A DNA stretch of 4,108 nucleotides from a virus. Its lineage: Duplodnaviria; Heunggongvirae; Uroviricota; Caudoviricetes. How positions within the stretch are numbered: position 1 is the stretch's first letter; the number at the start of each line of letters is the position of its first letter. Below are positions 3 to 4,108 of the stretch, piece by piece. The translations under genes and the position numbers were made by a program. The notes under the pieces are model-generated. The model had not been told where the DNA came from and did no database searches. It saw nothing but the letters and a program-made list of their open reading frames with translations. The stretch lies in IMG/VR virus record IMGVR_UViG_2565956622_000012. One strand, 5' to 3'.

Positions 3-137
3 TCACCACCGACTATTTGCAACAGTGCCATTAAAAAAATGTCGTCACGCGATTTTATTCAGTTGTGCGCTGTGGCTGTAAATTTTATGAGCGAGCCAGA
101 CTCTGGCGCGAAGAGCGTGCAGGAGACGGCAGCGTAA
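3..137 (+). CDS. Phage tail assembly chaperone gpE-like, C-terminal fragment (5' end lies outside the window); zero frame for the E/E' -1 frameshift
   Basis: Frame 3 is open from the window edge to TAA at 135-137 (…IKKMSSRDFIQLCAVAVNFMSEPDSGAKSVQETAA*). It sits immediately upstream of, and overlapping, the conserved E' frame, as expected for the P2 E/E' arrangement. Openness alone is weak evidence (45 codons); the call rests on synteny with E', T and U. Confidence 0.4.
   Translation, partial: SPPTICNSAIKKMSSRDFIQLCAVAVNFMSEPDSGAKSVQETAA
4..29. repeat. Left copy of a perfect 26-bp inverted repeat (caccaccgactatttgcaacagtgcc)
   Basis: Exact reverse complement of 4083-4108, with an imperfect extension of about 9 further bp inward. 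It lies in the E reading frame at the window edge. Confidence 0.95.
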
Positions 138-301
138 TCACCCTGGTGTGCTTTGAGCACATCGAAGATCTGGTGGCGGATATTGCCGCCATTTTCAACT
201 GGTCGCCCGCCGAAATCTTCATGATGACGCCCGGCGAAGTGGTTAGCTGGCGTGAGCGGGCGGCACTTCGCAGCGGGAATGCAGATAATGAAGACTCTTG
301 A
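65..301 (+). CDS. GpE-family phage tail protein (E' extension), probably expressed as an E+E' fusion by programmed -1 frameshift; frame 2 is open 35-301
   Basis: The frame-2 translation …FNWSPAEIFMMTPGEVVSWRERAALRSGNA… matches the conserved W-x-P-x-E…M…E…W…A…R-S-G pattern of the P2 GpE/E' family. It ends at TGA 299-301, overlapping the tape measure start, as in the P2 F-E-T-U-D operon. Frame 2 is closed upstream by TAA at 32-34, so entry is by frameshift from frame 3 or from an internal start (GTG 65). Confidence 0.65.
   Translation: MRCGCKFYERARLWREERAGDGSVITLVCFEHIEDLVADIAAIFNWSPAEIFMMTPGEVVSWRERAALRSGNADNEDS
80..86 (+). other. Candidate -1 programmed frameshift slippery heptamer A_AAT_TTT (X_XXY_YYZ in the E frame)
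   Basis: AAATTTT at 80-86 is phased so that codons AAT (81-83) and TTT (84-86) are in frame 3; a -1 slip enters frame 2, the conserved E' frame. An alternative slippery element is the A7 run at 33-39. Confidence 0.35.
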
Positions 302-3095
302 CATCCGGGTCGCTTTCAGCGCCGTTGACAGGCTGACCCGGCCTGCCGAAAACGCCCGCCGCCTGATGGGGCAGTTTGGTGACTCCATTCAGCGAACGCA
401 GGGGGCGATCAAAAATCTCGAGCGTCAGGCGCGTTCATTTGAGCGCGCCCGCGACGCTGTCAGTAAAGCGGATGCGGGTATCGTGAAAGCACGACGCCAG
501 CTTAACGCCCTTAATCAGTTACAACGCACGGGTACAGTGCTCAGCGAAAAACAACAAAAGCTGATGCAGCAGTTAAGCACCCGGCTTGAACGCCTGAATG
601 AATCGCGCACACGGGAAATTCAGAAAATGCGGGAGCTTGGCGGAGAACTGAAACGCCACGGCATTTCCCTGACAGGCAGCGATAACACCATCCAGCAGGC
701 CATCAGACGCACCGAACAATACAACAACCAGCTTGAACGCGAACGGCAGGCGCTTGCGCGTGTAACGCAGGCTCGTGAGCGGTATTCGCGCGCGCAGGAA
801 ACCGCGGGAAAACTGAAAACAGGTGGTGCGCTGGCAATTGGTGCGGCAGCGGCGGGCGGCTATGCTGCCGGGCGTTTTTTGCAGCCCGCGATCGGGTTCG
901 GCAAAGAGATGTCCCGCGTTCAGGCGCTGACGCGAATCGACAAAAACAGCCCGCAGTTTAAGGCGCTGCGTGAGCAGGCGTTAAAACTTGGCTCTGAAAC
1001 ACAGTTTACTGCGAGTGATGCCGCCAGTGGGCAGAGCTTTCTGGCAATGGCTGGTTTTACTCCGCAGGCCATTCAGGCCGCATTGCCCGGTGTTCTTAAT
1101 ATGGCGCTGGCAGGTGGCGTCGAACTCGGCGAGACGGCTGATATAGGCTCCAATATCCTCACACAGTTCAACCTGACAGCCGATCAAATGGACCGGGTTG
1201 GCGATACGCTGACAGCGGCATTCACCCGGACCAATACTGATTTACGCGCGCTGGGCGAAACCATGAAGTATACCGGTCCGGTTGCCGCAAAACTTGGTAT
1301 CAGTCTTGAAGAAGCGGCAGCCATGGCCGGGATGCTTGCCAATAATGGTCTTCGTGGAAGCGATGCTGGTACGGCCATGCGCGCAAGTCTGTCCCGCCTT
1401 GCATCACCGCCAAAAGCTGCGGCTGATGCGCTGAAAGAGCTGGGGGTGTCAGTTGCTGACGCCAGAGGCAAAATGCGCCCGATGGAGGATGTGCTGCTTG
1501 ATCTCTATAAGGCGACACAAAAATACGGACAGGTGGACCAGGTTTCCTTCTTCAAGGACATCGCCGGAGAAGAGGCGTTCGTTGGTTTGCAGACGCTTGT
1601 TGCGGCGGCTGGTTCAGGAGAGCTGCAAAAACTGACCAGAGAATTGCAGGGGGCAAGGGGAGAGGCCGATCGCGTTGCAAAAGTAATGGCCGATAATCTT
1701 GATGGGGACCTGAAAAATCTCGACAGCGCATGGGAAGGTCTTCGTATTCGCATCAGTGATCTGGTTGACGGTCCGCTGCGTTCTGTCACGCAGTGGCTCA
1801 CGCGGGTGCTTGAAAAAATCACCTCGCTGGCGCAGGCCCATCCGGTACTGACGCGCCAGCTACTGATAGCAGGCGGTGCGTTGCTGGCAATGACTGCAAC
1901 GGTTGGCTCGTTGTCGCTGGCTATTGGTGTGCTTGCTGGCCCGCTGGCAAAACTGCGTCTTGGCTTTTCCCTCCTGACCGGTTCAATGAATGCTGTCAGA
2001 CTCCTGCCAGCACTATGGGGAATGGTGACGGGTTCCGTTTCGTTACTGGGGGGCGCTATCGGGGCGTTGTTCAGTCCGGTCGGCCTTATCGTGGCTGCGC
2101 TTGCCGGAGCTGCCGTTCTCATCTGGAAATACTGGGATCCCATCAGGGCATTTTTTGCCGGGGTGTTCAGCGGGATTATGGAAAGGCTGACCCCGTTGCG
2201 CGAAACCTTTGAACGGTTTGGTCCTGTTTTTGACGCAATCGGGAGTGGGATCAGCCAGGTGTTTAACTGGTTTAAATCGCTGCTGTCTCCGATGGAGTCC
2301 AGCAAGGAAACTCTGGATAAATGTACCAGTGCTGGCGAGATATTCGGTAACGTTCTTGGCGGTGCGTTACAACTTGTTCTGACACCTGCAAAAATGTTGC
2401 TGGATACGCTGGCGTGGATACTTGAAAAGCTTGGTGTGCTTCCGGATGAAGCGGAAAGGGCGCGCAAGAAAATCGAAGACGCACAGCGTGCGGCCATTCT
2501 TCAGGACAAGGTTGCCTTGCTTCAGGGGGACCTGGCGAAAATCAATCCGCCGAAGCCTGTGGAAAATGGCAATGGCACCGGAGGTGATAACCCCAAAGAC
2601 AATAAACCGCTCACAGACAGCAATACCGGTACGCTGCGCAGACTCAGCAAAATTGCTGATAACACAGGTAAGCTGGTTGAGGAGACGAAAAAACGCATTG
2701 GCCCCGGCGATATTGTCTTTAAAAACCTGCCCCGAGCACTTGCTGTTCGTGGGGAGTGGCAGGAGCGGAAGATTGCGCAGGTCAGTAAGCCTGCCCCCGC
2801 AATTAATATCACACCCGTGGTCCCGGCTCCGCTGCCTCCGGCGCTGGTCCCTGTTGTTGCGGCCAGCTCCCGCCCGGTGGCGGAGGCTATACGATCTCCA
2901 GTGGCATCAGTTCCTGTAACTTCCCGTAACCGGGAGCCTGTTGCCTCCGGATTTGGTGGTGAAATTCATGTTCATCTGCATAACGTTGTTACGCAGAATC
3001 CCCGCGAACTGGCGAAACTGGTCGGTGAAATGGTCAGGGCAGAAATGGAACGGCGCGCCCGTGCCGGGCGTGGCAGTTTTTACGATAAAGATTGA
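288..3095 (+). CDS. Phage tail tape measure protein (P2 gpT-like)
   Basis: A 2.8-kb ORF ending at TGA 3093-3095. It has a charged coiled-coil-like N-terminal region, a conserved tape-measure core (…LTRIDKNSPQFKALREQALKLGSETQFTASDAASGQSFLAMAGFTP…GVELGETADIGSNILTQFNLTADQMDRVGDTLTAAFTRTNTDLRALGETMKYTGPVAAKLGISLEEAAAMAGMLANNGLRGSDAGTAMRASL…), a long central hydrophobic Gly/Ala/Leu-rich segment, and a Pro/Ala/Val-rich C-terminal linker. The start is ambiguous (GTG 252, ATG 279, ATG 288); ATG 288 has GGGA about 9 nt upstream and gives MKTLDIRVAFSAV…. Confidence 0.92.
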   Translation: MKTLDIRVAFSAVDRLTRPAENARRLMGQFGDSIQRTQGAIKNLERQARSFERARDAVSKADAGIVKARRQLNALNQLQRTGTVLSEKQQKLMQQLSTRLERLNESRTREIQKMRELGGELKRHGISLTGSDNTIQQAIRRTEQYNNQLERERQALARVTQARERYSRAQETAGKLKTGGALAIGAAAAGGYAAGRFLQPAIGFGKEMSRVQALTRIDKNSPQFKALREQALKLGSETQFTASDAASGQSFLAMAGFTPQAIQAALPGVLNMALAGGVELGETADIGSNILTQFNLTADQMDRVGDTLTAAFTRTNTDLRALGETMKYTGPVAAKLGISLEEAAAMAGMLANNGLRGSDAGTAMRASLSRLASPPKAAADALKELGVSVADARGKMRPMEDVLLDLYKATQKYGQVDQVSFFKDIAGEEAFVGLQTLVAAAGSGELQKLTRELQGARGEADRVAKVMADNLDGDLKNLDSAWEGLRIRISDLVDGPLRSVTQWLTRVLEKITSLAQAHPVLTRQLLIAGGALLAMTATVGSLSLAIGVLAGPLAKLRLGFSLLTGSMNAVRLLPALWGMVTGSVSLLGGAIGALFSPVGLIVAALAGAAVLIWKYWDPIRAFFAGVFSGIMERLTPLRETFERFGPVFDAIGSGISQVFNWFKSLLSPMESSKETLDKCTSAGEIFGNVLGGALQLVLTPAKMLLDTLAWILEKLGVLPDEAERARKKIEDAQRAAILQDKVALLQGDLAKINPPKPVENGNGTGGDNPKDNKPLTDSNTGTLRRLSKIADNTGKLVEETKKRIGPGDIVFKNLPRALAVRGEWQERKIAQVSKPAPAINITPVVPAPLPPALVPVVAASSRPVAEAIRSPVASVPVTSRNREPVASGFGGEIHVHLHNVVTQNPRELAKLVGEMVRAEMERRARAGRGSFYDKD

Positions 3096-3099
3096 GGAG
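3094..3099 (+). promoter_or_regulatory. Shine-Dalgarno (GAGGAG) for the gpU-like gene, overlapping the tape measure stop codon (translational coupling)
   Basis: GAGGAG at 3094-3099 lies 8 nt upstream of ATG 3108 and immediately after the T stop TGA 3093-3095. Confidence 0.6.
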
Positions 3100-3107
3100 T
3101 CATGGCC

Positions 3108-3596
3108 ATGATGATGATCTACGGCATGTTTGTTTTTGAGCTGCGCACGCTGCCGCATCAGCAGTTACAGCAAAACAAAAGCTGGCGGCATGTGAAAAAT
3201 GAACGCGTTAACCGTTCAGCAAGCTGGCAGTATATCGGTGCAGGTGATGATCGCATCGTTCTTTCTGGTGTGCTTTATCCTGAAATTACAGGTGGCGAAG
3301 TGTCGCTGTCGCTGCTGACCACGCAGGCGTATACAGGACGACCCTGGCCTTTGATTGATGGCGTCGGGCAGATTTACGGCATGTATGTCCTGACTGAAAC
3401 GAATACGACCCGCTCCGAGTTTGATCGCTACGGTAAGGCGAAAAAGATAGAATTTTCACTGACTCTTGAACGCTGTGATGAGGATTTGCGGGAGCGCCTG
3501 CAATCCTCATCGTTCAGTGATATGCTGTCCGGCTTCAAAGATAAGGTGACATCATCTCTTAACAGCGCGGCCAGTTCAGTTAAAGGGCTGTTCTGA
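3108..3596 (+). CDS. Phage tail protein gpU-like (P2 U family)
   Basis: ORF MMMIYGMFVFELRTLPHQQL…WRH…NERV…LSGVLYPEITGG…WPLIDGVGQIYGMYVLT…KKIEFSLTLERCDE… has the N-terminus and motif spacing I recall for P2 gpU-family proteins. It sits directly downstream of the tape measure gene and ends at TGA 3594-3596. An in-frame ATG at 3102 is too close to the SD; 3108 is preferred. Confidence 0.85.
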   Translation: MMMIYGMFVFELRTLPHQQLQQNKSWRHVKNERVNRSASWQYIGAGDDRIVLSGVLYPEITGGEVSLSLLTTQAYTGRPWPLIDGVGQIYGMYVLTETNTTRSEFDRYGKAKKIEFSLTLERCDEDLRERLQSSSFSDMLSGFKDKVTSSLNSAASSVKGLF

Positions 3597-3605
3597 TTTA
3601 ACACA

Positions 3606-3640
3606 AAAACCGCTAATGGTCAGATTAGCGGTTTTCATTT
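3606..3640 (+). terminator. Bidirectional rho-independent terminator shared by the convergent gpU-like gene and invertase remnant
   Basis: Perfect 12-bp inverted repeat aaaaccgctaat (3606-3617) / attagcggtttt (3624-3635) with a 6-nt loop ggtcag, followed by a T-run (ttttcatttt) on the + strand and preceded by an A-run (a T-run on the - strand). The invertase stop codon (TAA, complement of 3625-3627) lies inside the stem. Confidence 0.7.
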
Positions 3641-4082
3641 TCCTGAGTCTGCCCGGTTGTTTCTTCAGTCTGTATATCGCCTACAGGGTGATAACGATAA
3701 ATCGTCGATGTGCCAATGCCGTAAATTATTGCCAGTTGTTTTCTGTCGTGCCCGTTTTTGATTAGCCTTGCTATTTGCTCATGCTGTTCTTTTGTCAGCT
3801 TCGGTCGACGTCCGCCTGTGCGCCCCCTTGCGCGCGCTGCCGCCAGCCCGGCCAGTGTACGTTCAACAATTAATTCACGTTCCATTTCAGCCAGGGCACC
3901 CATCACGTGGAAGAAAAAACGCCCCATTGGAGAAGATGTGTCTATGCTGTCGGTCAGACTGCGAAAATTAATCCCTCGCTCCCGTAGTTCCCCGACGAGA
4001 GAAATCAGATGTTTCATGCTTCGCCCGAGGCGATCCAGTTTCCAGACAACCAGCGTGTCACCTTTTTGAAGGCGCTTTAAAG
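3625..4082 (-). pseudogene. DNA invertase (Hin/Gin/Pin/Cin-family serine recombinase), 5'-truncated remnant lacking the N-terminal catalytic serine region; C-terminal HTH retained
   Basis: The - strand translation …LKRLQKGDTLVVWKLDRLGRSMKHLISLVGELRERGINFRSLTDSIDTSSPMGRFFFHVMGALAEMERELIVERTLAGLAAARARGRTGGRRPKL…GHDRKQLAIIYGIGTSTIYRYHP… corresponds to roughly residues 45-190 of Gin/Hin-type invertases (by recollection). The first ~45 residues, including the catalytic Ser (GYxRVSTxxQ motif), are absent. In-frame sequence upstream of 4082 (…TTDYLQQCP) does not resemble the conserved …RPGLKRAL… region and is the inverted copy of window positions 4-29. The ORF track calls 3625-4095 using a TTG start. 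Confidence 0.8.
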
Positions 4083-4108
4083 GGCACTGTTGCAAATAGT
4101 CGGTGGTG
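4083..4108. repeat. Right copy of the perfect 26-bp inverted repeat (ggcactgttgcaaatagtcggtggtg)
   Basis: Exact reverse complement of 4-29. It begins precisely where invertase homology ends. Confidence 0.95.

Follow-up and report, generated by a model that had tools for sequence, protein, structure and literature searches.

The window considered here, the whole stretch of 4,108 nucleotides, is a dead remnant produced by IS26, and no break after gene U was involved in its making. Very probably, positions 30-4082 are a 4,053-bp piece of the tail region of a P88-like temperate phage (Peduoviridae), inert and held between two inversely oriented copies of IS26. Prophages of the P88 type are related to P2 and are common in E. 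coli, and the window is an ordinary leftover of one of them, about 4 kb long. The original prediction recognized the same parts: gene U, a hairpin close behind it, and a convergent, truncated invertase gene are all present where it placed them, and there is indeed no D gene within the 4,108 nt. It read these parts, however, as a P2-type F-E-T-U-D operon interrupted after U, and that reading fails, because the same order of U, hairpin, and invertase is native in P88-like phages.

The tail genes run along the plus strand. At the left, positions 30-137 are the 3' end of the tail chaperone gene E (its last 35 codons and the stop), cut by IS26 and 100% identical to positions 9001-9108 of L001, a locus on plasmid pC-Ec2-KPC. 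Those positions are the end of an annotated E-like 'phage tail protein' CDS, and P2 gpE matches that gene in a tblastn search. There follows E' (146-301), the frameshift extension of E, which has a GpE-family domain (PF06528, Phage_P2_GpE, E=2.1e-12) and whose counterpart at 9117-9272 of the same locus is annotated 'GpE family phage tail protein'. The tape measure gene T (288-3095; PF10145, PhageMin_Tail, E=1.6e-56) is complete and encodes 935 amino acids; its counterparts are annotated as tape measure genes in L001, P88, and others, and its product has 33% identity to P2 gpT. Gene U is also complete (3108-3596, with an alternative start at 3102 and the stop codon at 3594-3596; PF06995, Phage_P2_GpU, E=5.5e-39), and its product is 46% identical to P2 gpU. 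By Pfam matches above the curated cut-offs and by tblastn with P2 proteins, gpE/E', gpT, and gpU stand in the order of a Peduoviridae tail module. The window has no gene for gpD next after that for gpU in the same orientation, the arrangement of P2 and 186 that the original prediction presumed; but such adjacency of U and D defines the P2 arrangement, not the family.

The frames of E and E' overlap, and by analogy with the -1 frameshift that gives E and E+E' in P2, the heptamer A_AAT_TTT at 80-86 (plus strand) is a candidate slippery site for an E+E' fusion. It is read in the E frame, at a place where E overlaps with the open -1 frame (65-301). The overlapping arrangement of E and E' is common to P2 and the window, but the annotated P2 site, GGT TTT TTG, differs from the heptamer both in sequence and in position.

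A remnant of U is found apart from the phage as well. A 96-bp piece of its 3' end (window 3506-3601, 96.9% identity), stopping just short of the hairpin, is present in at least seven E. coli plasmids of 47-50 kb. In one of these, typed as non-mobilizable (L011, positions 4001-4096), the remnant lies between repA and a block of transferase, tail-fibre-assembly, and tail-fibre genes, which suggests that a P88-like phage was the source from which the tail-fibre module passed into a replicon resembling a phage-plasmid.

Nine bases after the stop codon of U, there begins a hairpin (3606-3635), a perfect 12-bp inverted repeat (AAAACCGCTAAT-GGTCAG-ATTAGCGGTTTT) flanked by a run of A and a run of T. 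The plus strand folds with -17.4 kcal/mol (z -4.4) and the minus strand with -17.1 kcal/mol (z -3.7). Only 4 of the 12 base pairs are G-C, and a run of U lies 3' of the stem on both strands. The stop codon of the invertase gene (3625-3627) sits within the hairpin. Judged by its sequence and folding, which on both strands have the structure of an intrinsic terminator (a stable stem-loop followed by a U-run), the hairpin is probably a bidirectional terminator shared by the FI-U operon and the convergent invertase gene. An Rfam scan of the whole window found no family at threshold.

The stem of the hairpin is invariant in eight of nine aligned relatives, and only the loop varies. Two of the eight, PhiR44_2 and Chuche, have no invertase gene and yet keep the hairpin (PhiR44_2 also keeps about 50 nt of the 3' end of the invertase gene). 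That the hairpin is conserved with or without the invertase fits a terminator at the end of the operon, one that belongs to the U side. No compensatory changes in the stem were seen in the alignment of the nine relatives, only invariance, so conservation of the stem could in part reflect the overlapping invertase codons, though not in PhiR44_2 and Chuche. In the ninth relative, pZ1323PEC0009-2, U is followed by a different sequence in which a 9-bp inverted repeat, CTGGCCACT...AGTGGCCAG, can be made out by eye as an apparent hairpin, and then by a transferase gene. Homology also breaks recurrently at 3601/3602, right after the stop codon of U, in relatives without the invertase (L004 8746-8849, L003, L010), O157:H7 strains among them.

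Converging on U from the minus strand is the 3' end (458 nt, 3625-4082) of a gene encoding a Gin-family serine invertase, as identified by Pfam and by comparison with L001. It specifies the C-terminal 151 residues (49-199) of a 199-aa protein, covering positions 56-144 of the 145 in the Resolvase profile and including the HTH_7 DNA-binding domain (PF02796, E=2e-13). Residues 1-48 have been replaced by IS26, and with them went the catalytic Ser9 (in VLIGYVRVST), leaving the catalytic domain incomplete. The native sequence, as found in L001, departs from the window exactly at 4083, and the full-length protein of 199 aa that it encodes matches the Gin structures 3UJ3 and 4M6F (E=1e-99 to 3e-100). 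The 5' part of the retained gene sequence (window 3869-4085) has 97% DNA identity to gin of D108 and of other Mu-like phages, and the 3' part does not. The invertase gene is therefore a mosaic of P88-like and Mu-like phage.

The invertible segment with its inverted repeats is likewise not in the window but is present in relatives. In L001, inverted repeats of 507 nt (13246-13752 and 15521-16027) lie directly beyond the invertase gene and enclose two opposed tail-fibre assembly genes. This segment (L001 13246-16027) and its counterpart in strain AR_0086 (L012 24246-27027) have opposite orientations, in records that are otherwise collinear and that annotate the same invertase protein (WP_000905061.1). 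The opposite orientations are direct evidence that the tail-fibre segment inverts. The full-length relative thus resembles Gin/Cin/Pin/Hin and their invertible segments (of the type of the Mu G segment) both in its protein and in the adjoining opposed tail-fibre assembly genes, but the copy in the window has neither residues 1-48 nor an invertible segment. Because the residues bearing Ser9 and the substrate segment are both missing, the stub cannot be active. It had been supposed that invertases in P2-like phages normally adjoin invertible tail-fibre segments and do not sit downstream of U. The segment does adjoin the invertase in relatives, but the same position is also downstream of U.

How ordinary this arrangement is can be seen from the distribution of the junction between U and the invertase. 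Of the phage records, thirteen match the window over 80% of its length or more, and the identity found in phage records, 91-97% over at least 98% of the window, places the fragment among the P88-like phages; the alignment of the hairpin agrees with this placement. Eleven of the thirteen span the U/invertase junction, with 91-97% identity across 24/30-4082/4085. The eleven represent six phages (P88, 500465-2, P88_4B11, 520873, 503458, and Citrobacter phage phiSM), and U followed by a DNA invertase on the opposite strand is found in the annotation of five of the six (annotation of this order was retrieved for all six except 520873). Among 5,426 complete E. coli genomes, 1,358 match the window over at least 80% of its length, and 631 cover at least 80% of a 351-bp probe consisting of the 3' end of U, the hairpin, and the 3' end of the invertase gene. 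Many of the matches in E. coli genomes are 100% identical, including those in ST131 strains, where the prophage adjoins serS and has a full set of structural genes. P88 is mitomycin-inducible and plaque-forming, with a contractile-tailed virion (PMC5285337), and phiSM is released spontaneously, forms plaques, and lysogenises K-12 (PMC6456863). In P88-like phages (Xuanwuvirus/Gemsvirus, Peduoviridae), the native order is U followed by the hairpin and an opposing invertase gene. The synteny, then, is not atypical, as the original prediction had it, being that of the plaque-forming P88 and phiSM and of hundreds of E. coli genomes.

One could still suppose that an operon of the P2 type, FI-FII-E-T-U-D, suffered a rearrangement behind U that deleted D and brought in a terminator and the remnant of a foreign invertase gene, and that the junction is a scar of decay. 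In P2, D does come right after U and in the same orientation, and in the window the invertase is truncated and D is absent. We regard this account as extremely unlikely, however, because the identical junction is found in complete plaque-forming phages and in the 631 complete E. coli genomes, because D is intact elsewhere in genomes bearing the same junction, and because the invertase is full length in relatives, the window copy being cut only at the IS26 junction.

As a piece of a P88-like phage, on the other hand, the fragment is readily placed. P88 and its relatives, including phiSM and the ST131-type prophage adjoining serS, have the same E-E'-T-U, hairpin, and convergent invertase in the same order and orientation, and window 30-4082 is 91-97% identical to the phage records and 100% identical to the ST131-type prophage. 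It differs from those phages in that it holds only about 4 kb of a genome of roughly 31-37 kb, with E and the invertase gene truncated by IS26 and with FI, FII, D, ogr, and the tail fibre, baseplate, head, lysis, and lysogeny genes absent. The suggestion that the fragment is a defective remnant of a tail module was correct insofar as it is a remnant, but the cause is truncation of E and the invertase gene by IS26, not rearrangement after U.

Where, then, do these phages keep D? In L001, in P88 (L002), and in PhiR44_2 (L003), the gene next upstream of FI, which lies on the opposite strand, encodes a protein of 366-369 aa, and after it comes a gene for an Ogr/Delta zinc-finger protein. In all three, the protein is 48-50% identical to P2 gpD (tblastn), and a Pfam scan of the L001 and P88 copies found the GPD domain (PF05954). 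The idea that D had been replaced by a terminator and an invertase is contradicted by these relatives, which keep both D and ogr upstream of FI on the opposite strand. Nor does D in these relatives lie beyond the invertase in collinear orientation, the arrangement that, together with a complete structural cluster, the original prediction would have taken as the sign of a functional prophage; it is found instead upstream of FI, on the other strand. There is one chromosomal prophage, that of AR_0086 (L012 16715-17568), in which D is annotated as a shortened CDS of 801 nt with an adjacent pseudogene fragment. The prophage is otherwise complete, and this copy may itself be defective.

The gene order found by tblastn with P2 proteins in the P88 lineage is int (+); ogr (-), D (-); FI, FII, E, T, U (+); G (-), H (-), where int was seen only in L001, the loci L002 and L003 stopping short of it. 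In P2, according to its annotation, H, G, FI, FII, E, T, U, D, and ogr are all on one strand and int is on the other. The P88 lineage differs from P2 by an in-place inversion of precisely the FI-U block, so that this block is reversed with respect to H-G, D-ogr, and int, and D is divergent from FI. The comparison of gene order that the original prediction proposed thus shows U and D on one strand in P2 but the FI-U block inverted in the P88 lineage. It follows from the inversion that U ends its operon and that D needs a promoter of its own in the 157-bp intergenic region between D and FI. No perfect TGT-N12-ACA dyad of the P2-type late promoter was seen by eye in that region of L001. The inversion and the placement of D hold whether or not the invertase gene is present (PhiR44_2 lacks it).

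Apart from the inversion, the P2 F operon (FI-FII-E-E'-T-U-D, then ogr) has homologues throughout, with identities of 46% for FI, 42% for FII, 31-35% for E, 32-33% for T, 46% for U, 48-50% for D, and 42% for Ogr. The neighbor of G differs, being fun(Z) in P2 and the invertase gene with its invertible segment in the P88 lineage. It is conceivable, though improbable, that the adjacent serine invertase, acting at secondary sites, produced the in-place inversion of the FI-U block.

The two ends of the window come from a different source. Positions 1-29 have exactly the sequence of the final 29 nt of an 820-bp IS26 copy that lies beside an annotated IS26 transposase gene in L001. This is the transposase-proximal end of the element, and the 29 nt end in its 14-bp terminal inverted repeat, TTTGCAACAGTGCC. 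At the right, the reverse complement of 4083-4108 is exactly the last 26 nt of that IS26, the same sequence as 4-29. Both the 14-bp terminal inverted repeat (GGCACTGTTGCAAA) and the subterminal sequence are those of IS26. The ends of the window thereby form an inverted repeat with each other (4-36 against 4076-4108), and the 26-mer CACCACCGACTATTTGCAACAGTGCC occurs twice in the plasmid locus L001, each time beside an annotated IS26 transposase gene. The last 26 bases (4083-4108) of the region that the original prediction described as following U are hence the end of IS26, not invertase.

All relatives align with the window from base 24/30 to 4082/4085 and no further, and in a base-by-base comparison with L001, the native phage sequence continues where the window turns to IS26, at 29/30 and at 4082/4083. 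From only 29 and 26 nt within the window, we infer complete left and right copies of IS26 lying outside it; the two would be inverted, both transposase-proximal ends facing inward. The left one cuts E and the right one cuts the invertase gene, and FI, FII, D, ogr, and everything else have been removed. An assembly chimera was considered and rejected, because both junctions fall exactly at the terminal base of IS26, as in real insertions. Exact scans found no match to the left junction in genome and metagenome contig collections and none to the right junction in the genome contig collection, and an exact-sequence protein look-up found no match to the hybrid invertase ORF of 156 aa. In the plasmid, phage, and E. 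coli collections, no record joins bases 1-29 or 4086-4108 to the fragment.

Segments bounded by IS26 are known from multiresistance plasmids (He et al. 2015, PMC4471558), and these, like the window, have exact IS26 termini at both ends. In the window, however, the cargo consists of phage tail genes rather than resistance genes and, because its IS26 copies are inverted, it is neither a translocatable unit nor a direct-repeat pseudo-compound transposon.

A course of events leading to the remnant may be pictured as follows. In the intact phage, the tail operon FI-FII-E-E'-T-U, inverted with respect to P2, ends after U at the hairpin, a probable terminator, and there meets head-on a Gin-type invertase gene that has its own stop codon within that hairpin. 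The invertase flips the adjoining tail-fibre segment, and D and ogr are transcribed separately, divergent from FI. Insertion of IS26, IS26-mediated deletion of adjacent DNA, or both would then have removed all that lay to the left of the last 35 or so codons of E, and IS26 would likewise have removed all that lay to the right of codon 49 of the invertase gene. What is left is a complete T and U, which have lost their late promoter along with FI/FII, D, and the genes for baseplate and head, and the invertase stub without its catalytic serine.

From what replicon did the fragment come? Positions 30-4082 have zero mismatches over 4,053 bp to the IncC plasmid pC-Ec2-KPC and are also 100% identical to many ST131-type chromosomes, and in pC-Ec2-KPC and the ST131-type records alike the sequence runs on natively past both junctions of the window. 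On pC-Ec2-KPC, a KPC plasmid (L013, NZ_MK439959.1 36000-62900), nearly the whole of a roughly 38-kb ST131-type P88-like prophage lies among three copies of IS26 and carries replication, head, lysis, baseplate, tail, and lysogeny genes. A 16.3-kb portion containing the sequence of the window is situated between inverted copies of IS26, whose inward-facing ends are those found in the window. The 8-bp flank outside the left copy (CATTCAGG, L001 233-240) and that inside the right copy (CCTGAATG, L001 17364-17371) are reverse complements of one another; the outer flanks are the baseplate J side, ending in CATTCAGG, and GGTCTTAA, leading to the LysR/ptxD side. Intramolecular replicative transposition of IS26 in trans produces an inversion with reverse-complement flanks as its signature, and the in-cis mode deletes adjacent DNA (PMC4471558). 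The flanks CATTCAGG and CCTGAATG bear the signature of such an in-trans inversion.

The chance that the fragment descends from a plasmid-borne prophage like that of pC-Ec2-KPC, each IS26 having deleted inward in cis with a loss of about 7.9 kb at the left end and about 4.3 kb at the right, falls only just short of even. The 4,053 bp match that plasmid throughout, the orientations of both IS26 ends are the same, and two inward deletions from a structure of this kind would yield exactly the window. Both of the mechanisms called for, deletion in cis and inversion in trans, have been described (PMC4471558), and the plasmid displays both the nearly whole prophage among three copies of IS26 and the mark of an in-trans inversion. 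Furthermore, a Salmonella IncHI2A plasmid also has the E'-T-U-invertase module beside IS26. That module (pS2122_1, L009 5101-6656) is 90% identical, with IS26 about 250 bp beyond an intact invertase gene, and is a second case, independent of the first, of a plasmid on which a prophage of this type is associated with IS26. Against a plasmid source, chromosomal ST131-type prophages are identical to the same full extent, and no record among the collections searched has the junctions of the window.

The fragment may have come instead from a chromosomal (or other) P88-like prophage that suffered two independent IS26 insertions or rearrangements, the window being the short-read contig between them and the remaining prophage perhaps lying beyond IS26. 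This is a serious possibility, though one we would sooner bet against than for. The perfect identity to many chromosomal prophages accords with it, and the sequence of 4,108 bp enters a repeat at each end by only a few tens of bases, which is how a contig broken at IS26 would look. However, independent insertions presenting the same end of IS26 inward are less parsimonious than a structure already bounded by IS26. Under either origin, the invertase gene and E are disrupted.

The remnant appears to be silent. A crude consensus scan of the window found only one promoter-like site, a weak one inside T, and none near either IS26 junction. A hybrid promoter making use of TTGCAA in the terminal repeat of IS26 would find no acceptable -10 sequence at a spacing of 16-18 nt at either junction. 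The fragment is without the FI-proximal late promoter, ogr, and the sheath, tube, D, baseplate, and head genes. It is most simply seen as inert passenger DNA that would not be expressed, and it cannot build a tail or a tailocin.

T and U are nonetheless intact ORFs without mismatches to functional copies, and one might imagine that the IS26-bounded pair was kept because it is expressed (from an outward promoter derived from IS26, for example) and useful, perhaps by interfering with tail assembly of incoming P2-like phages. This seems extremely improbable. The scan offers no promoter-like site near the IS26 junctions and only the single weak one inside T, and the native Ogr-dependent promoter upstream of FI is absent, as is ogr itself. 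The zero divergence from the parental prophage points to a recent event rather than to selection, and no such junction recurs in any collection searched. It is similarly a very long shot that T and U are transcribed from an IS26-adjacent or cryptic promoter and that their proteins poison the tail assembly of superinfecting P2/P88-like phages. If that were true, the fragment would be anti-phage cargo, mobilised by IS26 and borne on a plasmid.

Taken as an inert leftover of IS26 activity, the window has a content already represented in annotated public genomes and in the described biology of IS26, and there is nothing new in it; the importance of the case extends little beyond correct annotation. 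Short contigs with IS26 termini at their ends are to be read as IS26-bounded remnants. The junctions at 29/30 and 4082/4083 could serve, in the epidemiology of resistance plasmids, to trace a lineage from an IS26-captured ST131-type prophage such as that of pC-Ec2-KPC. As for the phages themselves, roughly one complete E. coli genome in four contains a P88-like prophage, and in such prophages a "missing D after U" is no sign of decay.
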